Origin: Psammoneis japonica
Lineage: Eukaryota
Assembly: GCA_008632985.1 (NCBI GenBank)
Contig: QPGO01000131.1
Location: 62,001 to 126,000 of the forward strand
Length of the DNA: 64,000 bases
Direction of reading: 5' to 3'
Part shown: positions 4,035 through 47,654 of the stretch, in pieces
Position numbering within the stretch: the stretch's first letter is position 1
Layout: every line of letters starts with the position of its first letter
Translations under genes and position numbers: made by a program
The notes under the pieces: model-generated
Database searches by the model: none
Told to the model about the DNA's origin: nothing
Seen by the model: only the letters and a program-made list of their open reading frames with translations

Positions 4035-4822
4035 ATACCCAGAAAATGCTCTGTCCTCGTTCACTGTTTACTGGAACCTATCCTGCCATGCATGAAAATG
4101 AAGAAGTGAGACCAAAGATCCTTTATATTCTCTACATCTTTCATTAAGTTGGTAATGCGTCCCAGTTCCCCTCGCTGTACTTTGAACTTGTACCTGCATT
4201 CCTCTTCCAAATTCCTTCGCCACCTGCCCCTTACAATGAGAGTGTCTCTTTCACACAGAGATCCGAGAAGTCTACACACAAGGGAATATCTGCGCTACTA
4301 GGGCATGCGCTCTGAGTCCTGTCTGAAGTGCTTCAACAGTGGAGATTTCCTGGATTCCTCTTGTGCTATGTCACTTCGTAGCAAAGGCAAGCGATTCGCT
4401 CCCCCTACAGTAGCTAACTGTTGTGGAACAAATTTCGTGCTTCTCTTCACAGCACAGCAAGCTATGGAAAGGAACCGCAGCTACTAGAGTGGCTACTTTA
4501 GCTATGGCTACTCTAGCTACTAGAAGTACTAGCTTGCTGTTGCTGGCTGAAGTACGAGGAGATAGCTACTACTAGCTAGCATGAACGCCCACCCGCCGCC
4601 GGGGCCTCATTTTGCGAATTTTGAACGCGCGTTTTCGCGCGCACTCTGAGTCAGTCGCTTGGCCTCACATTTTTTTGAACTTTGAACTCGCACGAACATG
4701 CCGTGTCGTCGTCGACCACGTCTCGTTTTCTCGATCGTTCCCGCTTCCATCCAGTCGCATACCTGTAACAGAAGTTTGGAAAGATAAACTGCCACAAAAA
4801 AGAGAACAGGAATGTGCTAGTC

Positions 4823-7366
4823 ATGCAATCTACAGTCCAAACGACTGCTTTGATATCCAATCTTCGAGCCAAGGTAACAGGCGCAGACGTGAACTATGTA
4901 GGAAGCGTTACAATTGATGCTGTCCTGTGCGATTATGTCGGCATCTTTGACAGACAACTCCTGCACATTAGAAATGAATCTACCGGAGTCGACCTGTGGA
5001 CCTATGTGATATACGGAAGACGCTCCTCATCCGTTCCGCCAGGCACTGTTTGCCTGAACGGAGCTGCTGCTCATCTTGTTTCGGTCGGTGATGTTGTGAA
5101 CCTTACTGCATGGGGGCGCTTCCCCGCATGTGTGTCGTTACCTGAACCAAGAACATGGGACGCGGTTGTGAATGGGTTTGAACCGCCATTAGGCTATACT
5201 CCAGATGAGCTCTGGGCTCACATGGCTTCTGTAGAAATAGCTATCGGAAAAATTCACCGCCCTCGAATCTCACAAGTTTGTGAAATTCCCATCGGAGGGG
5301 GGCATGCGCCATCTATTGCGGTCGACAAAGATTGGGCAGATGAGGCTGGTCTATTGGAAGGCCAAGTTGCGCACCTCGTCAACATTACAACAGGGCAGAG
5401 AGATGTCTTACCCATCAAATATGCAAGCGCTGGATCAAAAGCATGTATACTTTCAATGCCTGCGTCCGGTGTCTACGCAACGGAAAACTACGGTTCGCGA
5501 TCTGGTCATTTTGCAGGCGATATTGTTATTGTCATGTGTTATGCAACGGTAATGCGCTCCGCCTTGAAATCTGGGTCCATACCCAGCATGAAGATATCTT
5601 TCCCATGTGAGCGCGCAGAAGATGCTGAAGATCCTTTGGACACGAGTTGGTATTCGGCTACACGAATTGTATGGGAAGAACCAAAGCTTGCCGCAGGACT
5701 TGTCGATCTTCTGGACCTAAAGAGACCTGGGTTAAGGGTGTTGGACTGTTCTTGTGGAAATGCTTTTCCAGCGACATATTTGATCAAGGCTGGGGTGGAT
5801 CTTCACTTGTCTGATTGCTCAGAGCTTGTTTGCACGAGTGCCAGAGAAAGACTAGCCGAGGAGCTTGGACCAGACCATGGCGTTGATGTACGATGTGTGC
5901 AATGGGATAAATTAGCTTGCGAATACGGCAAGCAGTCTTTCGACGTTATCATTTGGAGGGGAGTCTCCCTGCCCTATGTCGAAGGGGGGTGTTGTAGTGC
6001 AACTTCGATCGGACGAGAGTCAATTGCAGCCACTGGGTACAGGAACCTTCACTCGGCCGCTGCTGGTATATTCAATGTCTTAGCCCCGGGAGGCAAGCTG
6101 TATGTCGATTGTGTCCCTAGCTACGCTGAAAATGGTAAGGCCATAAAGAAAGACGGGCTTTCACCCGAGACTGAAAGTGGAGCACAAGTCACGGTCGAGT
6201 GGGAGACCCGCGTTGACGAGGAGCAACGTTCACGTAAATGGAGTAGCACAACAACAATCGATAAGGACGGACAGTCGACTCGCACAATGAACTCGAACTT
6301 AACTGCATTGCTGGTGAGAGAACAAGAAATCCGCTCTGTACTATCCTACGTTGGATTTGGAGTCGTCGAAAGCACCACGTGTGACGGCGAAGATGTGTAC
6401 CAGCCATTTATTGCACACAAACCAACCGCTGAGATTGGCTATTACGATCGTCAAGTAGAGCGCTATCGTAGCGTGTGGAACGACAATGGCAAAATACTAT
6501 GGGGCTTGTTTGCTGGTGTCGCTCCTTATGTCATGACGCCAGAGATGACTGAAATGTCGTCCGTTTGTGGTAAAGGGGCTCTTGTCGGACCAAACCTAGC
6601 CATGCAAGCTTTCATGGTGAGCAAACTCGATCCAATAACGGTGAAAAGTATATTAGACGTGGGATGCGGAACGGGCAGGTCAACAATAGATCTGTCGAAA
6701 CATTTTTCCACAGCTCAATGTGTGGGCTGCGATCCCAGCGGCGTCAGTATCCGGCAAGGTGTGAGTCGGGCAAAGGACGAGGGAGTTTCTGACAGGACTA
6801 CGTTCTTCCACGGGACTGTGCAGGATTTGATTGCGAGCGGTTGTGTCAAGGGGGCATTTTCGGCGGCATGGTCGGAGGCTGCTCTATGTCATGCCCCGCC
6901 TGGTGAACGTGCCGACGCAATTCGTGCAATAGCAGACCATGTGGAAGACGGCGGTATGTTTGTTCTGAACGATGCTGTCGCAGGACTGGCCCCCGTTTCG
7001 GCTGCGGCGCAACTTCACTTTTATGAGCGTTTGCATTACACTGGGCTTTGGACGGGTCGCATGTACATGGAGTTGCTTGAGTCTTGCGGCCTGCAGATTA
7101 TCGAGTATGTAGATTTGACTCAACACCTTGCGGCAAGCTACGATAAGTTAGCCGAGGAAGCAAAGATGGCGGCGGACGCATCAGGAGAGGACGTCGAGGC
7201 CAGACAAACATTCGCGACTCTCGCCGTGGATTACAAGATATCTGCGGAATGTGCACGGAGGGGTGAGCTCGGCTGGAATCTTTTCGTATGCAAGAAGTTG
7301 GGACGTGCTGGAGTTCAGAGGCAGAATTATAACGAAGCGGACAGCGAGGAAAAGAAACTTGACTGA
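4823..7366 (+). CDS. Fusion protein: PanD-like, PanD-like, glycine/sarcosine N-methyltransferase-like, sarcosine/dimethylglycine N-methyltransferase-like
   Basis: Domain 1: ADVNYVGSVTID, LWTY, NGAAAHLVSVGD. Domain 2: GKIHR, AGLLEG, NITTGQR, GDIVIVMCY. SAM motif I twice (VLDCSCGNA, ILDVGCGTG). SDMT-like C-terminus (FYERLH...DLTQHL...SY...GELGWNLFVCKK). First ATG at 4823; no introns. Confidence 0.85.
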   Translation: MQSTVQTTALISNLRAKVTGADVNYVGSVTIDAVLCDYVGIFDRQLLHIRNESTGVDLWTYVIYGRRSSSVPPGTVCLNGAAAHLVSVGDVVNLTAWGRFPACVSLPEPRTWDAVVNGFEPPLGYTPDELWAHMASVEIAIGKIHRPRISQVCEIPIGGGHAPSIAVDKDWADEAGLLEGQVAHLVNITTGQRDVLPIKYASAGSKACILSMPASGVYATENYGSRSGHFAGDIVIVMCYATVMRSALKSGSIPSMKISFPCERAEDAEDPLDTSWYSATRIVWEEPKLAAGLVDLLDLKRPGLRVLDCSCGNAFPATYLIKAGVDLHLSDCSELVCTSARERLAEELGPDHGVDVRCVQWDKLACEYGKQSFDVIIWRGVSLPYVEGGCCSATSIGRESIAATGYRNLHSAAAGIFNVLAPGGKLYVDCVPSYAENGKAIKKDGLSPETESGAQVTVEWETRVDEEQRSRKWSSTTTIDKDGQSTRTMNSNLTALLVREQEIRSVLSYVGFGVVESTTCDGEDVYQPFIAHKPTAEIGYYDRQVERYRSVWNDNGKILWGLFAGVAPYVMTPEMTEMSSVCGKGALVGPNLAMQAFMVSKLDPITVKSILDVGCGTGRSTIDLSKHFSTAQCVGCDPSGVSIRQGVSRAKDEGVSDRTTFFHGTVQDLIASGCVKGAFSAAWSEAALCHAPPGERADAIRAIADHVEDGGMFVLNDAVAGLAPVSAAAQLHFYERLHYTGLWTGRMYMELLESCGLQIIEYVDLTQHLAASYDKLAEEAKMAADASGEDVEARQTFATLAVDYKISAECARRGELGWNLFVCKKLGRAGVQRQNYNEADSEEKKLD

Positions 7367-7616: not shown

Positions 7617-9487
7617 TTAAATGCCGTCGCACAAAGTCTGGAACTCACGCTCCATTTCTTCGACAATGGCGCCGTAGTTCTTGTTGATGTTCTCCTGTGT
7701 CTCCTTCGGGTCAACGTACTTGGTATCAATGACCTTCTGGATGACAGGGGCAAGTGCGGTCTTGATGTGGGCGTACGTGAGCTTGGCATCAGCGGGAGAG
7801 TCGGCAATCGCCTTTTGGCAGAGATCGTAAAAGGTGATGATGACCTTGAGCATACCAACAGTCTTGGGGAGAGGACAAGTATAATCGTGCTCCGTGAAAG
7901 CGTTCTGGGCAAGGAAATCCTCACGAATAAGCTTGGCAACCTCCATTACGACCTTCTGATCCTCAGAAAGAGACTCCTTACCGACGAGCTGCACAATCTC
8001 AGAAAGGTTGTCTTCCATCTGGAGGATGTTACGGCCCTGGTTACGCAAGTACGAGTACTTCTCGTCCAAGGAGTTGAAGTACGGCTCAAGCACCTGCATG
8101 TACTTGGTGTACGAGATGAGCCAATTTAAACTTGGAAAATGTTTACGCTGGGCGAGCTTCTTATCGAGACCCCAGAACACTTGCACAATGGAAAGTGTAG
8201 CAGCGGTAACGGGATCAGAGAAATCACCACCGGGAGGGCTCACAGCACCAACAACCGTAACAGTTCCTTCACGCTCGGGAGAACCAAGACAAGAGACACG
8301 GCCAGCACGTTCATAGAAAGCAGCAAGACGGGCTCCAAGGTAGGCGGGGTAACCGGAATCTGCAGGCATCTCTCCCAAACGTCCAGAAATCTCACGAAGA
8401 GCCTCGGCCCAACGCGAGGTGGAGTCAGCCATCATGGACACGTTCATTCCCTGATCACGGAAGTACTCGGCAAGGGTAATACCAGTGTAAATGGAAGCCT
8501 CACGGGCTGCCACGGGCATGTTGGAAGTATTTGCTACAAGAGTAGTACGCTTCATGATTCCAACCTCCTTTTCTGTCCGGTTGCCTTGTCGACAATCTGC
8601 ATCGTCAATTCCGGGAAGTCACAAAGGACCTCCGCCATTTCATTTCCTCGTTCTCCACAGCCGACGTAGACAATGGCGTCGGAGTTTGAAAACTTGGAAA
8701 GAGACTGACTAATCACCGTCTTTCCACATCCAAAGGCCCCAGGCACAGCACATGTACCTCCAAGCACTGAGGGGAAAAGTCCATCAATAACACGAAGACC
8801 GGTAATAAGAGGGCGGTTTCCGGGAAGCTTCTCATTGATGGGACGAGGGCGGCGCACGGGCCAGAAATGACTGAGTGTAAGGTGATGAGTCTTGTCTTGG
8901 GATTCATTGTAGACTTCCATGACGACATCATCAACAAGGAAAGTCTCCTTTCCATCTGTTCCAGTGGTGTGAATCTTTTTGATTTCTCCATAGACATTGG
9001 GTGGACAGAGAATCTTGTGCGAATCGATAATCTCGTTTTCGTAGACAACACCAATCACGTCACCTCCACTGACAGGCTGCCCCTCCTTGAAGTTTCCGGG
9101 GGTAAAGGTCCAGCGAGTATCGCGGGTAAGGCAGGGAACATCCACACCCTTTGGCACGTAGACATCACCCGAGTCTTGGAAAATGTGCTCCAGAGGACGC
9201 TGAATACCATCGAAAATGGTTCCCATGATACCGGGACCAAGCTCAACGGAAAGTGGCTGCTTCTTACGAAGAACAGGATCACCCACGGTAAGACCAGAGG
9301 TATCCTCGTAGACCTGAATGGAAGCGGTATCACCCTCAAGCTTGATAATCTCTCCGACGAGCTTGGAGTGCCCGACACGGACAAGCTCGTACATCGCACT
9401 TCCACTCATGCCGTCAGCAACGACAAGGGGACCGGATACCTTGAAGATAAATCCATAGTCGCTTTCCTTTTCGGTGTCAAGGTTCAT
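7617..9487 (-). CDS. ATP6V1A: V-type H+-ATPase catalytic subunit A, with a one-base frameshift near 8570
   Basis: [10 protein letters not shown]-loop [48 protein letters not shown]. Adding one A in gga cag aaa agg joins the two ORFs as [11 protein letters not shown]. Confidence 0.97.
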
Positions 9488-23414: not shown

Positions 23415-24665
23415 ATGATGAGTTCTTCCATGAAGACACCGTTTCGAGAAAATGCAGAAGAGGTCTTGCCCGTCCACGTGAGCACTCCTCAAGACATGGC
23501 TCACGTGGTTGTAACCCTCTGCCCCGACTTGTTTCCTCGTCTGAATAGCAACAAGGACGAAACTGCTCCATGGGATGGCTTTCACGAAAAGAAAGAGGAC
23601 GCACAAGTCACCGCGAGCTCTCCCGGTCGTTGCAACGTACGACCTCTTTCAGGAGGGCTTTCGAATGAACTGTTTATTGTATCGTCGCGGGAAAAGGAAA
23701 GCAATTCTGTCTTGGTTCGGATTCATCCTCCTAGTCAAGAGGGACAAGACGATATTGTCAATCGAGAGGTTGAGAATCGAGTCATGGCCTTTCTGAGCAA
23801 AGAGGGAATTGCTCCCACCTTTTACGGACGCTTTCTGAATGGACGTGTCGAGGAGTTTTATACGAATTACCGCCCCTTGTCGTGTCAAGAAATGCCGCAA
23901 TACGCCTCTCAAGTAGCATTTCGTTTGGCTCAACTTCATCAGCTGACTGTTCCTGACGGAGTTCTTGCGATCAACGCAGTAGACTCCAGCGACTTCGGGG
24001 ACTACTGTGCTCAGGTCGAGTCTTGGCTCCAACTGGCACACAGACAACAAGAGCTTCATAAACGAGAATTATTAGAGGGAAAAGATTCCGTATTGTATCT
24101 GGATACACTCGAGAATGAACTTCAGTGGCTGAAACAACAACTGAGCTCGTCAAAAGTTGATGCCGACAGCAGTAGCACGGCATCTCGAGCGGCGACGTTT
24201 TGTCGAGAGATTGTTTTCACTCACATGGATTGTCAGTGTCTCAACGTGTTATTGTCTGAAAAAACAAATGATTTGAAAGTCATTGACTTTGAATACGCGG
24301 GTCGAAATGCCCGTGCCGCTGATATTGCCAATACCTTTTGCGAATTTTGCGACATGAACAAGCTCAAGGCGGACTTTGCAACACAGTATCCGTCGATTGC
24401 GTTGCAAAACGAATTTATTGAAGCCTACATGAACGTTATTAGGCCGGAATGGGTGCTAGAGTTAAAAGATACAGACTGTTGGGGGGAATTCTTATCCGGT
24501 ATGCGGCACGAGATTGGTCGACACACCTTGTTGTCGCATTTGGGATGGGCGGTATGGAGCATTGTACAGAGCGAGAAGTCTGCAATCGATTTTGATTATA
24601 TTGCTTATGCGAAACTTCGAATGGAGGGGTACAACTACTTTCGATCGAAATACTTTGACATATAA
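23415..24665 (+). CDS. Choline/ethanolamine kinase
   Basis: LSGGLSNEL, VLVRI, RFLNGRVEEF, Brenner motif FTHMDCQCLNVL, VIDFEYAG, DIANTFCE. Confidence 0.93.
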   Translation: MMSSSMKTPFRENAEEVLPVHVSTPQDMAHVVVTLCPDLFPRLNSNKDETAPWDGFHEKKEDAQVTASSPGRCNVRPLSGGLSNELFIVSSREKESNSVLVRIHPPSQEGQDDIVNREVENRVMAFLSKEGIAPTFYGRFLNGRVEEFYTNYRPLSCQEMPQYASQVAFRLAQLHQLTVPDGVLAINAVDSSDFGDYCAQVESWLQLAHRQQELHKRELLEGKDSVLYLDTLENELQWLKQQLSSSKVDADSSSTASRAATFCREIVFTHMDCQCLNVLLSEKTNDLKVIDFEYAGRNARAADIANTFCEFCDMNKLKADFATQYPSIALQNEFIEAYMNVIRPEWVLELKDTDCWGEFLSGMRHEIGRHTLLSHLGWAVWSIVQSEKSAIDFDYIAYAKLRMEGYNYFRSKYFDI

Positions 24666-24925: not shown

Positions 24926-26714
24926 ATGGAGACAACGGAAGAAGACAAGAGCGCCGCTCTGACGGCAAGTTTATTGGAGGGAAACACTGAGGATGTGAAT
25001 AATGAAGAAGCTGTTATTCGGCCTGTTGAACCAGTCGATGTGGAACAACAACCGTTGGACCCGAATGCGTCGTCTGCTCGTGATTGGGAGGTTGGAGAAA
25101 AGCAGGAATCGAAGTTTCGTGATGTGGTTTGGGCAGCTCTCTTTGTAGTACACGTGCTTGTCGTGCTGGTCATTGCATGTGTTTGGGGCATTCCTGCATT
25201 CAGCTGGGTACCAGATGGAGGGACAAACGAAGATACTACCGTTCACGTGTCTGGTGTTTTGTATCTTTGCCTACTCGCTGGACTAGCGTCGGTGGTGATT
25301 TCCGGGTTGACCTTGGGCGTCATGATTCGACACGCTGAGGTCTTGGTACAGATAAGTGTCCTGTTTTCGATCACAATGTCATTAGCTTTGGTGGTGATTA
25401 TGGCTTGTCAAGGAGAAGCGGGTGGCGCGAGTAAGTGGTTCAATGTTGGTTTCTCTCTGCGTTGTCTGGCGAAAACATGTGTACTTGTTCACTAATCCAT
25501 ATTTTCTTCTTTCTTCCTCATTCAAGTCATTGGGATTGTTTTCTTTCTCTTTGGCTGTTGCTACGCTTGGCGTGTGTGGAATCGCATCCCCTTTGCGGCA
25601 GCCAACCTAAGCACTGCCGTAACTGCCGTCCGAGCCAACTTGGGCGTGGCCTTGGTAGCGTACGGCATGGTGCTTGTAGTCTTTCTTTGGACAAGTCTCT
25701 GGCTGCTTTCACTTACCGGCGTTTACTTGAAATCAGTCCATTGTGAAGATGGGGTTTGTCAGGGACATGTTAATAGCTGGGTTATTGTGTTTTACCTCTT
25801 TTCCTACTACTGGACGCAGCAAGTCATCAAGAATGTCATTCACGTCACGGTTGCTGGCGTGGTGGGCACCTGGTGGATCGTCCCCTCGGAAGCGTCGTCC
25901 TGTTGCTCTCCAGCCATTATGGATTCCCTTGTAAGGAGCCTGACGTATTCCTTCGGATCCATATGCTTTGGAAGTCTCCTGGTGGCAGTCATCCGGGTGT
26001 TGCACAGCCTCGTAAGACAAGCTCGACGTGAAGGCGAGGACAATATTTTACTGTGCTTGCTGGAGTGTGTCATTTCACTTCTCGAGAGAATTATGATGTA
26101 CTTTAACAAGTGGGCTTATGTCTATGTCGGACTGTACGGTTATCCCTACAAGGAAGCCGGCCACCGCGTCATGACGCTGTTTTCAGCTAGAGGATGGTCA
26201 ACGATAATCAATGATGATCTCGTGTCCAATGCATTGGGTTTGATGACGCTTGTGATTGGGTGCCTCACTGGTGTTGCGGGTATGGCTCTCTGGAAGCTGG
26301 AACCCTCGTGGTTGACACCTTTTGCAGACTCTGCGCAAGGTGTTTCCTTTGGGTGAGTAAGATGCCGGACGTTGTAGTCTTGATTCGTCACTCCGCTTCA
26401 TCTCATTGTTGTTTAACATTATTTCTTCTGTGGGTAGGTCGGCTTTCTTCGTTGGAATCATGATTTCTTCTACTCTTGTACGTTTCGACAAGATTACTTC
26501 CTTTGGGCGCCTCTGTAATCCCAAAATGTTCCTCTCACCGTCTTTTTGTTTCCGTTCGTCGGTTGTTTAGATGAGTGTGATTGCCAGCGGAGTCGACACA
26601 GTTGTCGTATGCTTTGCCGAAACTCCATCCGAGTTTAGAGCAAATCATCCGGAATTGAGTGAAAGGATGCTTCAAGCATGGACGGCGGCTTACCCAAGGG
26701 ACTTTCGTGTTTAG
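24926..26714 (+). CDS. Choline transporter-like protein (CTL/SLC44/Pns1); introns about 25431-25526, 26353-26437, 26478-26570
   Basis: FRDVVWA, RIPFAAANL, HVTVAGVVGTWW, SFGSICFGSLLVA, FNKWAYVYVGLYG, IINDDLV, VDTVVVCFAE; GT-AG sites in frame. Confidence 0.92.
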
Positions 26715-41551: not shown

Positions 41552-43383
41552 TCAAAAGTCTTCCAAACCATATGGATCAAAATCGTCCAGGTCCTCGTCT
41601 TCCAAAACGGCGGCAAAGGGTATTGCCGACGGACTAATAGCATCATCTTCGTCAGCATACAGCAAATCGTACAAGTCTCGTCGCTCTTCGCGTAATCGTG
41701 AGATACTACCATCGGGTTCCGTCTTTTTGGCGCCCTTGGTTTTCTTCTTTTTCTTTGCCGCAGTCTTTTTCGGCTTTGCTTTGCGTGCCGTAGTTGTCTT
41801 TTTGATCGCAGGCTTTGCCACCTTTTTCTTTTTGACCGCTACGACTTTCTTTACCTTTTTTACTGCTCGCGGTTGCACCGCTCGAACCTCGTCCGTCTTT
41901 TTCCGTCTCGTGCGACGTGGAGATGGCAAAATTCCCATCTCTTCTCGCTTCTTGGCCATGGCATTAACAATTTTATTCCGGTATTCTTGATCTTGCCACT
42001 TTTTCTTCATGGCTTCACTGATACGCTGTCGGTGTGTTTTACCGTATCCTTTTTCTGGGCTCTTTCGTGTGTGGATTTTGGCCATCATTTTTTCACGAAA
42101 TTCAGGATCTTGCCATTTCGCCTTGAGCGTTTCCGAGATGCGTTTGCGGACATCCTCAGCCGAATTGCTAACGTTTGACTTTTCTACCATGTTGTCACGG
42201 TAAGACTTGTCGTTGGCCCATCTCTTTTTCAGAGACGCACTGATTTTAGCTCTTGTTTCCGCGCTGTGTGTAAATCCGCGCCTCACCTTGGAGGGATCAA
42301 CTGGCGTTCGTTTAATTTCACCCTTCGCATACTTGTCCTTGAGCACTTTCGATATCTTTTCTTTCGTCTCTTTTGTTGGTCGAAGGCCTCCCTTTTCGGT
42401 TCTTCTAGCCCGTCGCTCAGCATCCTTTTTCCTTCGTTCTGCCCGTTTCTGTTCCTTGTACTCCTCCTCGGTAATACCCTGTTCCTCTAGTTTCTTGAGA
42501 AAGTTTTGCCGGTTCCTGGCTCGCACACCCGCTGCAATTCGCGCTCTTGTCTCCTCAGAACGTGCCTTGCCCTTGTTCCATGGGATTTTCCCCTTGTTTG
42601 CGGCTGATATTTTTGCCTTGGACGACTTGGTGTGGGTGTATCCGCCGTTTGCGGTAGGATGAGGCACGTCATCGTCCGTGGGTTGCTCTGTTTCCCATAT
42701 CGGAATGTTAGACTCGTCTATTACTGAAGCGCCATTAACAGTAACAGAATTTTCCTTTCCATTTGATGCTGGAACGTTAGTCAACAGAGTGGCATTACTT
42801 ATACCGGAAGAGGAGTTCTGCGGAGCAGGGTCACTGCTTTTTCCATTCACTGTAGCTTCCGCTGTTGCATTCTGCGCCGGAGCAACTACATTTTCGACTG
42901 TAACTTCAGCTTTGTCAACTTGGGTAGAAGGGCCTGGCGATTCAGCTATATCCACTTCTGTGCTCCACAATCTAACCAAGCCCAGTGAAGGCGAAGAACA
43001 CTGTCCTAGCTCAGTCGATTGAAATAGTGGCCGATGAAACGGAACTCTACGAGGACACGGAGGAGCGTTAAAGCACGGACCTCCACGGCGCTCTCGTCGG
43101 TGCATACCCCTTGACCATGGTATCCATCGTCCTTGAAAGGCATCAACGACCATCCTAGGGCGAGTCTGACTTCCACCGGGCAGCAATACAGGATTGAAGC
43201 CAGAGTTGCAACAAGCGGTAGTTTTCGTCTACGTCGCTTAGAAGTTGACCTCTGAGGTCTCATCTCTGAATTCATCGTTTCTATCGCCTCTTTTCTTTTC
43301 ACTGTGTTCTCTAGCTCTGCTATTGACCGTTCTATGGTGTCCTTGGTTGCCGAAAGCCTCTTGTTTAGCATTTCATCCATCAT
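41552..43383 (-). CDS. Basic protein with NUMOD3-like repeats, full-length copy; one-base frameshift near 43187
   Basis: HTKSSKAKISAANKGKIPWNKG, SEETRARI, ETKEKIS, HSAETRAKISASLKKRW; acidic tail. The paralog has caataaca where this copy has caataca. Confidence 0.8.
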
Positions 43384-46235: not shown

Positions 46236-47654
46236 CTACTGACGAGTGTTAGTAGTGTATGTATGTAGATCGGCATCTGGGTCGTCCAACATGGCTTCAC
46301 TGATGCGCTGTCGGTGTGTTTTACCATGTCCTTTTTCTGGGCTCTTTCGTGTGTGGATTTTGGCCATCATTTTTTCACGAAATTCAGGATCTTGCCATTT
46401 CGCCTTGAGCGTTTCCGAGATGCGTTTGCGGACATCCTCAGCCAATTTTCTACCGTTTGACTTTTCCACCATGTTGTCGCGGTAAGACTTGTCGTTGGCC
46501 CATCTCTTTTTCATAGACGCACTGATTTTGGCTTTTGTTTCCGCGCTGTGTGTAGATCCGCGCCTCCACTTTGAGGGATCAACTGGCGTTCGTTTAATGT
46601 CACCCTTCGCCCACTTGTCCTTGAGCACTTTCGATATCTTTTCTTTCGTCTCTTTTGTGTGTCGATAGCCTCCCTTTTCGGTTCTTCTAGCCCGTCGCTC
46701 AGCTTCCTTTTTCCTTCGTTCCGCCCGTTTCTGTTCCTCGTACTCCTCCTCTGTAATACCCAGTTCCTCTAGTTTCTTGAGAAAGTTTTGCCGGTTCCTG
46801 GCTCGCACACCCGCTGCAATTCGCGCTCTTGTCTCCTCAGAACGTGCCTTTCCCTTGTTCCACGGGATTTTCCCCTTGTGTGCAGCTGATATTTTTGCCT
46901 TGGCCGCCTTGGTGTGGGAGTATCCACCGTTTGCGGTAGGACGAGGCATATCATCGTTCGTGGGTTGCTCTGTTTCCCGTGTCGGAATGTTAGACTCGTC
47001 TATTACTGAAGCACCATTAACAGTAACAGAATTTTCCTTTCCATTTGATGCTGGAACCGTAGTCAACAGAGTGGCATTACTTATACCGGAAGAGGAGTTC
47101 TGCGGAGCAGGGTCACTGCTTTTTCCATTCACTGTAGCTTCCGCTGTCGCATTCTGCGCCGGAGCAACTACATTTTCGACTGTAACTTCAGCTTTGTCAA
47201 CTTGGGTAGAAGGGCCTGGCGATTCAGCTATATCCACTTCTGTGCTCCACAATCTAACCAAGCCCAGTGAAGGCGAAGAACACTGTCCTAGCTCAGTCGA
47301 TTGAAATAGTGGCCGATGAAACGGAACTCTACGAGGACACGGAGGAGCGTTAAAGCACGGACCTCCACGGCGCTCTCGTCGGTGCATACCCCTTGACCAT
47401 GGTATCCATCGTCCTTGAAAGGCATCAACAACAACCCTAGGGCGAGTCTGACTTCCACCGGGCAGCAATAACAGGATTGAAGCCAGAGTTGCAGCGAGCG
47501 GTATTTTTCGTCTGCGTCGCTTAGAAGTTGACCTCTGAGGTCTCATCTCTGAATCCATCGTTTCTCTCGCCGCTTTTCTTTTCACTGTTATCCCTAGCTT
47601 TGCTATTTTCCGTTCTGTGGTGTTCTTGGTTGCCGAAAGCCTCTTGTTTAGCAT
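46236..47654 (-). CDS. 3'-truncated paralog of the NUMOD3-like protein, with an open frame and a new short tail
   Basis: 472-aa ORF similar to copy A up to RISEAM, then LDDPDADLHTYTTNTRQ from junction DNA. Confidence 0.65.
   Translation of the reverse strand: MLNKRLSATKNTTERKIAKLGITVKRKAARETMDSEMRPQRSTSKRRRRKIPLAATLASILLLLPGGSQTRPRVVVDAFQGRWIPWSRGMHRRERRGGPCFNAPPCPRRVPFHRPLFQSTELGQCSSPSLGLVRLWSTEVDIAESPGPSTQVDKAEVTVENVVAPAQNATAEATVNGKSSDPAPQNSSSGISNATLLTTVPASNGKENSVTVNGASVIDESNIPTRETEQPTNDDMPRPTANGGYSHTKAAKAKISAAHKGKIPWNKGKARSEETRARIAAGVRARNRQNFLKKLEELGITEEEYEEQKRAERRKKEAERRARRTEKGGYRHTKETKEKISKVLKDKWAKGDIKRTPVDPSKWRRGSTHSAETKAKISASMKKRWANDKSYRDNMVEKSNGRKLAEDVRKRISETLKAKWQDPEFREKMMAKIHTRKSPEKGHGKTHRQRISEAMLDDPDADLHTYTTNTRQ

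Follow-up and report, generated by a model that had tools for sequence, protein, structure and literature searches.

In this study, we analyzed a 64,000-nucleotide stretch of the genome of the diatom Psammoneis japonica (GenBank assembly GCA_008632985.1, contig QPGO01000131.1, positions 62,001 to 126,000 of the forward strand; hereafter the window), in which a single gene encodes two PanD-like domains (D1 and D2) followed by two S-adenosylmethionine (SAM)-dependent methyltransferase domains (MT1 and MT2). The two PanD copies appear to be complementary halves of one active site, not two enzymes, and this is the new element here. The protein is best read as converting aspartate to beta-alanine and then to N-methylated beta-alanine, probably beta-alanine betaine, an assignment to which we give somewhat better than an even chance. 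The literature searched, which had most subscription journals outside its scope, gave no account of either a tandem PanD or a PanD-methyltransferase fusion; a preceding sequence-only reading of this DNA had likewise known the architecture from no characterised protein.

The gene is a single uninterrupted open reading frame (ORF) of 847 codons plus stop on the forward strand, from the ATG at 4823 to the stop codon at 7364-7366. This ATG is the first one after an in-frame stop at 4766-4768, and the start is supported by the N-termini of homologous proteins, which begin at the equivalent residue. Thirteen Pfam families were listed for the protein at E values up to 1, including Asp_decarbox in two stretches (E 4.8e-27, 94.6 bits against a cut-off of 25) and Methyltransf_25, Methyltransf_31, Methyltransf_11 and Methyltransf_12, also in two stretches each. 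The sequence-only reading had seen one intronless ORF with the four domains at about 4823-5120, 5230-5550, 5670-6420 and 6430-7300, and had named Asp_decarbox and Methyltransf as the Pfam families to look for. Both families were matched, the frame is open and appears homologous end to end, and the ranges agree with ours to within a few tens of bases.

The assignment of the decarboxylase rests on the residues of the PanD active site. This site lies at a dimer interface, to which the other subunit supplies Lys9 and Arg54, the latter determining substrate specificity, according to the accessible part of PMC3314653. Thr57 is required for activation (pyruvoyl formation), Tyr58 is the proton donor and Arg54 binds the beta-carboxylate, as stated in the available text of PMC3975893. 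D1 retains Tyr25-x-Gly27-Ser28 (corresponding to Y22, G24 and S25), Thr60-Tyr61 (T57 and Y58) and the segment Asn79-Gly-Ala-Ala-Ala-His, N79GAAAH84 (N72-H77), and is devoid of K9 (Ser12), H11 (Leu14) and R54 (Asp57). D2 retains Lys143, His145, Arg146 and Arg193 (K9, H11, R12 and R54) and is devoid of G24 (Pro163), T57 (Leu196) and Y58 (Pro197), with the NGAAA motif lost. The Gly24-Ser25 pair together with Thr57, Tyr58 and Asn72 in one subunit is thus found in D1 and not in D2, and the Lys9/His11/Arg54 set of every PanD subunit is found in D2 and not in D1.

The same division was observed when the residues were tabulated in E. coli numbering for 20 tandem-PanD proteins (19 for the K9 and H11 columns of D1). 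All D1 domains possess G24, S25, T57 and Y58 (20/20 each), which are found in 0/20, 8/20, 0/20 and 1/20 of the D2 domains, respectively. N72 and G73, tabulated for D1, are also present in 20/20. On the other side, K9 and H11 are present in every D2 (20/20 each) and in no D1 (0/19 each), and R54 in 20/20 D2 and 1/20 D1 domains. The protein P0018 holds the only D1 among the 20 that has kept Arg at the R54 position. The catalytic residues are invariant across proteins that are just 34-70% identical. Since Lys9 and Arg54 come from the neighbouring subunit in solved PanD, the tandem should form one composite site. It should encode exactly one complete aspartate site, to which D1 would contribute the cofactor side and D2 the substrate-gripping side. 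The sequence-only reading had seen two PanD-like domains; the residue table speaks for two complementary halves of a single site and against two decarboxylases.

A phylogenetic analysis of PanD was performed with the D1 and D2 sequences, 26 canonical PanDs and three cyanobacterial fused PanDs, based on 109 columns and with many deep forks unresolved. The D1 sequences form one clade (Shimodaira-Hasegawa-like approximate likelihood ratio support, SH-aLRT, 98) and the D2 sequences another (99), and both are long-branched. As D1 and D2 each make up one clade, the division of labour is old and has been maintained. The duplication and the division of labour appear to predate the divergence of all 20 proteins.

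The predicted structure of the tandem conforms to this picture. An AlphaFold2 model of residues 1-275, built on a 19-row alignment, has a predicted local distance difference test score (pLDDT) of 86.9 and a predicted template-modelling score (pTM) of 0.83. The best PDB folds returned by Foldseek for this model are PanD entries, with template-modelling scores to the target of 0.77-0.92, and the double-psi beta-barrel fold is indicated by the model, by Foldseek and by the two Pfam stretches. A two-copy homodimer of the tandem reached an ipSAE of 0.84, against 0.00 for the best control; among solved proteins, 20 of 30 pairs of one chain attain the mark applied, compared with one of 23 single chains. 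The runs share at least 90% of their contacts, with a partner pLDDT of at least 86. As solved PanD tetramers exist, this result may stem from likeness and need not be independent evidence. The contacts of lowest predicted error are between residues 9, 10 and 13 of D1, which flank the lost K9/H11, and residues 162, 163 and 197 in D2 of the other chain, which belong to the region of the lost G24/Y58. In the model, the two dead halves meet between chains. A four-barrel ring is thereby predicted in which the live halves meet within each chain, with two live and two dead sites per dimer.

The two methyltransferase domains were characterised mainly by family profiles. A profile of MT1 and 14 single-domain relatives finds glycine/sarcosine N-methyltransferase (GSMT; 5h02/5gwx, 2e-26) as the best solved structure, and glycine N-methyltransferases (GNMT) follow at 7e-20 to about 1e-19. 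The AlphaFold2 model of MT1 has a pLDDT of 85.3. Its Foldseek matches did not discriminate between substrates, with assorted N- and C-methyltransferases on top, many of them acting on primary amines, and GSMT at rank 24. In the profile alignment, no Arg of MT1 or its relatives is paired with the R of DQRNY, a segment that follows strand 5 in GSMT. In GSMT, the Arg of this segment binds the glycine carboxylate. MT1 is GSMT-like in fold and probably not glycine-specific. MT2 matches the NF041675 model sarc_dimgly_tmase (E 2e-9) from residue 598 to 824, covering profile positions 57-276 of 278, and has an intact SAM motif I. A profile of MT2 and 13 relatives finds the phosphoethanolamine N-methyltransferase (PEAMT) 5wp5 at 1.4e-40 and the Galdieria sarcosine/dimethylglycine N-methyltransferase (SDMT) 2o57 at 7.6e-29; the MT2 of the window alone gives a weak match to 5wp4 (E 0.0059). 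Both PEAMT and SDMT carry amines to the quaternary state.

Relatives of the protein were found in several forms. Five were found by a word-indexed search, all from Logan assemblies, and 24 proteins were found by an exhaustive search at E values up to 1e-30. The tandem PanD followed by MT1 and MT2 is present in P0002, P0004, P0007 and P0010, and P0003 from the word-indexed search is another four-domain fusion. P0018, with 1101 aa, has the same domains, and its tandem PanD is separated from MT1-MT2 by an insert of about 250 aa. P0005 consists of the tandem PanD and MT1 only, and P0006 from the word-indexed search of the tandem PanD and MT1 without a complete MT2. P0008 is an MT1-MT2 protein of 567 aa (43% identical), about ten proteins are tandem PanDs alone, and P0013 has a single canonical PanD followed by MT1 and MT2. 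The diatom Seminavis robusta has an annotated tandem PanD of 296 aa without listed methyltransferase domains. A metagenome scan with P0034, the closest single-domain relative of MT1, returned 11 loci at up to 36% identity, with one 42-residue segment at 49%; none of these 11 loci has a PanD match by tblastn, and the scan thus gave no operon evidence.

The single-PanD form is cyanobacterial. P0013 is encoded by Symploca sp. SIO1C2, and its fused PanD has the full catalytic set and passes the TIGR00223 cut-off (119.3 bits against 106). With P0013 as query, PanD-MT1 fusions were also found in Dapis sp. and in Cyanobacteria bacterium J06592_8; the carriers Symploca, Dapis and others are marine filamentous cyanobacteria. 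In a sample of 401 genomes of the phylum, no genome other than that of the query (G001) was found with P0013 to have the fusion, and one other genome matched P0013, over the MT2 part only. The fused PanDs of the cyanobacteria group with a Thiotrichaceae PanD in the PanD tree and are set apart from both D1 and D2. The MT1 tree unites the diatom-type MT1s in one clade (99) and places the cyanobacterial MT1s among single-domain proteins. Since both the PanD and the MT1 of the cyanobacteria fall outside the diatom-type clades, either the fusion has a separate origin or it is very old. These three families of domains would accordingly have been joined on two or more occasions, or both forms are very old. 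The per-domain phylogeny that the sequence-only reading had proposed thus recovered the D1, D2 and MT1 clades, and the bacterial origin that it had suggested was not borne out. The joining of PanD to these methyltransferases in both forms supports, as a fusion-based argument, the view that the methyltransferases use the product of the decarboxylase.

The cyanobacterial loci show some further features. The Symploca fusion is directly followed, at L001 10054-12615, by a gene for a 2Fe-2S ferredoxin, one for a protein of 465 aa that has two methyltransferase domains, and a further PanD-like ORF; the last two lie 2 kb from the fusion. The frame of this second PanD-like ORF is interrupted by a stop shortly before the Tyr-x-Gly-Ser site and is without the K9/H11 strand. 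The Dapis genome (G003 contig 4) has a comparable pairing of a PanD gene with a two-methyltransferase gene. A gene of the EamA transporter family adjoins PanD-MT1 in Dapis (L003 6965-7918, same strand, 77 bp gap) and in J06592_8 (L002 6924-7874, divergent), and its protein may export the product. In Okeania sp. SIO2F4 (L004 1116-3054), the PanD-MT1 fusion is truncated, with query residues 132-409 matching and an IS605 OrfB transposase ORF directly upstream; this copy was probably disrupted by insertion.

Based on these residues and homologies, the diatom protein would be a cytosolic multifunctional enzyme that converts L-aspartate to N-methylated beta-alanine, most likely beta-alanine betaine, with the consumption of three SAM. 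In the first step, D1 would cleave itself between Gly27 and Ser28, and Ser28 would become the pyruvoyl group at the N-terminus of an 820-aa chain. Aspartate would then be bound in the composite site, to which D1 would give the pyruvoyl group, Thr60, Tyr61 and Asn79, and D2 would give Lys143, His145 and Arg193, as the neighbouring subunit does in ordinary PanD; decarboxylation would yield beta-alanine. For this, two chains would pair and their four barrels would restore a ring like that of PanD, in which two sites are live and two dead. In the third step, the GSMT/GNMT-like MT1 would put the first methyl group or groups on the free amine, and in the fourth, the SDMT/PEAMT-like MT2 would complete the quaternary ammonium. 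All four steps are inferred from conserved residues and homology. The route from aspartate through beta-alanine to a trimethylated betaine had already been proposed in the sequence-only reading; its architecture and chemistry fit everything computed here, and the end product and the substrate are the parts that stay at the level of inference. A dimethylsulfoniopropionate (DMSP) or other sulfonium product, mentioned there as an alternative, found no support and was rejected, as the invariant Arg54 equivalent of D2 suits an acidic side chain and not a sulfonium. The head group of the betaine lipid DGTA is hydroxymethyl-trimethyl-beta-alanine. A role in making this lipid was considered and set aside, since no finding here connects the protein with lipids and its family has a patchy distribution in diatoms.

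Several observations weigh against the synthesis of beta-alanine betaine. All domains of the diatom protein score below the curated cut-offs, namely 94.1 bits against 106 for the panD model TIGR00223, 24.2 bits against 350 for the MT1 match to NF051855 GlySarMtaseBact (E 2.2e-5, aa 282-383), and 37.8 bits against 550 for MT2 and NF041675. No domain is an equivalog, and homology therefore does not settle the substrates. Among solved structures, the MT2 family matches PEAMT best, and not SDMT. Motif I of MT1 contains CSCGNA, compared with the canonical ACGTG or ATGTG; the variant is conserved in P0001, P0002, P0003, P0006 and P0010, homologues with 38-58% identity. The MT1 of the window also has RGVSLPY and SDCSE, versus RGNSLPY and SDGSE in its closest relative and in the family consensus, and neither of the two changed columns is invariant among relatives. 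Motif I of MT2 is degenerate in P0002, P0003, P0004 and P0010 (for example, LHAGCRSG and LIVGFTSI), and MT2 is missing in P0005 and P0006, so that not every member of the family would reach full trimethylation through MT2. In some members MT2 may be a pseudo-domain, and in P0004 the SAM motif of MT1 is degenerate too. Finally, the tandem PanDs for which no methyltransferase domains are listed may serve an ordinary supply of beta-alanine.

Two alternatives share part of the proposed chemistry, and we regard each of them as unlikely. According to one, aspartate is decarboxylated in the same way and the end product is just mono- or dimethylated beta-alanine, or a building block for a lipid head group or a secondary metabolite. 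The degenerate or absent MT2 in six fused homologues would be explained by this, as would the N,N-dimethyltransferases DesVI, TylM1 and CypM among the structural neighbours of MT1, and the EamA exporter-type gene beside the fusion in two of the three intact cyanobacterial loci suits a secreted product. The MT2 of the window, with its intact SAM motif and its whole-length match to the quaternary-amine makers SDMT and PEAMT, argues for complete methylation instead, and so does the order of a GSMT-like and then an SDMT-like domain, which is that of three-step betaine synthases in the accessible part of PMC7240134.

The other of the two supposes a different acidic substrate, such as glutamate, cysteate, cysteine sulfinate or O-phosphoserine, leading to gamma-aminobutyric acid (GABA) betaine, N-methyltaurines or phosphocholine. 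This is suggested by the long branches and the sub-equivalog score of the two PanD halves and by the PEAMT match of the MT2 family, and in the available text of PMC11965087 marine protists are reported to contain GABA betaine and a sulfobetaine besides beta-alanine betaine. Against it stands the retention of all aspartate-contacting residues of solved PanD between D1 and D2 (20/20), together with the PanD of the cyanobacterial counterpart, which passes the curated cut-off for aspartate 1-decarboxylase.

It is improbable that the polypeptide combines two unrelated activities, with MT1-MT2 acting as a glycine betaine synthase like GSDMT of Thalassiosira pseudonana and the tandem PanD feeding pantothenate and coenzyme A. 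The domain order is the one found in GSDMT, which a diatom uses for glycine betaine as described in the accessible parts of PMC12650439 and PMC7240134. The PanD-less homologue P0008 speaks for this reading too, as does the tandem PanD of Seminavis, for which no methyltransferase domains are listed. Several results disagree with such a combination. Two forms, assembled separately, join PanD to this pair of methyltransferases, and Symploca has a second PanD-like gene near its fused PanD. In addition, MT1 and its relatives are without the glycine-carboxylate Arg of DQRNY, and the GSMT and SDMT models give the diatom protein very low scores. That the protein is a pseudoenzyme, decaying or regulatory, without any function in a decarboxylase-methyltransferase pathway is very improbable: the N-to-V and G-to-C changes specific to the MT1 of the window, the degenerate site of D2 and the degenerate SAM motifs in both methyltransferases of P0004 would agree with decay, but the 847-codon frame is open, the catalytic residues are invariant at 34-70% identity, the losses are complementary and not random, and all domains modelled fold confidently.

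The proposed beta-alanine betaine synthase can be compared with several known systems. It resembles bacterial PanD (E. coli 1ppy/1aw8, M. tuberculosis 2c45) in the double-psi beta-barrel and in the catalytic residues, with the G-S site, T57, Y58 and N72 in D1 and K9, H11 and R54 in D2, and the predicted ring-like pairing of the tandem recalls the PanD tetramer. Bacterial PanD is a homotetramer of subunits of about 120-140 aa with four identical sites, whereas the diatom unit consists of two diverged, fused copies, scores below the TIGR00223 cut-off and is joined to two methyltransferases. As each copy keeps half of the site, at most two of the four interfaces would be active. The cyanobacterial PanD-MT1-MT2 protein of Symploca and the PanD-MT1 proteins of Dapis, J06592_8 and Okeania have the same domain families in the same order, but a single canonical PanD with a complete site, and PanD and MT1 domains outside the diatom-type clades. 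PEAMTs of plants and apicomplexans (5wp4, 5wp5, 3uj6) contain the best solved match of the MT2 family and likewise turn an amine into a quaternary ammonium; they act on a phospho-base and, unlike the diatom fusion, have no decarboxylase domain.

The plant beta-alanine N-methyltransferase of Limonium (Plumbaginaceae) is a single COMT-like protein of the O-methyltransferase family, and its beta-alanine is not known to derive from PanD. An O-methyltransferase family 2 domain is not among the 13 Pfam families listed for the diatom protein, and a function shared with the plant enzyme would therefore be convergent. The likeness to this beta-alanine N-methyltransferase is in the proposed product, beta-alanine betaine, and in the three SAM-dependent methylations, as given in the available part of PMC9321204. 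The GSMT plus SDMT pair and the T. pseudonana GSDMT are alike in having a GSMT/GNMT-like and then an SDMT-like domain, an order that GSDMT and the diatom protein hold in one chain, and in turning a small amino acid into a betaine by successive SAM-dependent N-methylations (PMC7240134 and PMC12650439, accessible parts). They differ from the diatom fusion, which is far below the curated cut-offs, has the variant motif I in MT1 and is without the DQRNY Arg. The diatom protein also differs from GSDMT in its N-terminal decarboxylase, which would make the likely substrate on the same chain; the likening to GSDMT of T. pseudonana is based on its published description.

The gene is located in a eukaryotic, nuclear and gene-dense window (Table 1) that also encodes TFIIF-beta, Fra10Ac1, a rhomboid protein, a choline kinase and a choline-transporter-like protein. 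The fusion ORF has a GC content of 0.507, and of 0.475 at third codon positions (GC3), both inside the range spanned by 13 further ORFs of the window. This makes contamination or very recent transfer unlikely, and these possibilities, of which the sequence-only reading had raised the first, were rejected on the composition of the ORF and on its eukaryotic neighbours. The gene for V-ATPase subunit A ends 250 bp downstream of the fusion gene, on the opposite strand, and the encoded fragment is 87-95% identical to proteins of Thalassiosira, Skeletonema, Discostella, Odontella and other diatoms. Its two ORFs lie in different frames with a 4-base overlap, probably owing to a short intron or a frame change. 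The choline/ethanolamine kinase and choline-transporter-like ORFs adjoin each other 16-19 kb downstream of the fusion and may represent more quaternary-amine metabolism in the same region, or a coincidence. Two long ORFs contain the NUMOD3 motif, which is typical of homing-endonuclease-type DNA binding.

Table 1. Positions of the fusion gene, its predicted domains and motifs, and other genes in the window.
Feature	Residues (aa)	Position	Strand	Basis
Whole ORF, PanD(D1)-PanD(D2)-MT1-MT2	847 + stop	4823..7366	+	ORF, Pfam, NCBIfam
PanD-like D1, 'cis' half	8-113	4844..5161	+	alignment to PDB PanD 2c45, 1pt1, 1ppy; fold model
Predicted self-cleavage site Gly27-Ser28	27-28	4901..4906	+	aligned to G24-S25 of E. 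coli and M. tuberculosis PanD
PanD-like D2, 'trans' half	136-262	5228..5608	+	phmmer alignment to 1pyq, 4azd, 1ppy
MT1, class I SAM methyltransferase, GSMT/GNMT type	271-538	5633..6436	+	profile, AlphaFold2, Foldseek
MT1 variant motif I, VLDCSCGNA		5738-5764	+	sequence
MT2, class I SAM methyltransferase, SDMT/PEAMT type	540-830	6440..7312	+	NF041675; family profile
MT2 intact motif I, ILDVGCGTG	610-618	6650-6676	+	sequence; SAM motif present
V-ATPase catalytic subunit A (two ORFs, 7617-8555 and 8552-9487)		7617-9487	-	
Choline/ethanolamine kinase		23415-24665	+	
Choline-transporter-like ORF		25667-26356	+	
ORF with NUMOD3 motif	533	41552-43153	-	
ORF with NUMOD3 motif	472	46236-47654	-	

Beta-alanine betaine is present in marine particulate metabolomes, where it takes up SAM-derived methyl groups (PMC9321204), and it has been found in a dinoflagellate and a haptophyte (PMC11965087); in the accessible parts of both papers, the plant pathway is the only one cited for its synthesis. 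It is also named among the compounds taken up by diatoms in the portion of the literature available. The fusion gene is, from its sequence, the best candidate so far for an algal route to this compound. A wider picture, which we put forward tentatively and rate at a little under an even chance, is that this would be the first beta-alanine betaine gene outside plants, with the whole route in one diatom polypeptide, that the decarboxylase would be an obligate pseudo-heterodimer derived from an ancient tandem duplication, that the pathway would have been assembled separately in marine cyanobacteria, and that it would account for the beta-alanine betaine of ocean metabolomes. The candidate gene opens to testing the producers of beta-alanine betaine, its response to salinity and its entry into nitrogen and methyl cycling. 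A one-gene route from aspartate to a betaine could aid the engineering of stress tolerance, as has been tried with the T. pseudonana GSDMT (PMC12650439, in the part available). The tandem PanD would be a clean natural case of subfunctionalisation inside a homo-oligomeric enzyme, in which each copy has lost exactly what the other keeps, and such a split site bears on the evolution and engineering of pyruvoyl enzymes. Built from known enzyme families, the fusion gives a testable function for a marine metabolite together with a notable split-site decarboxylase.

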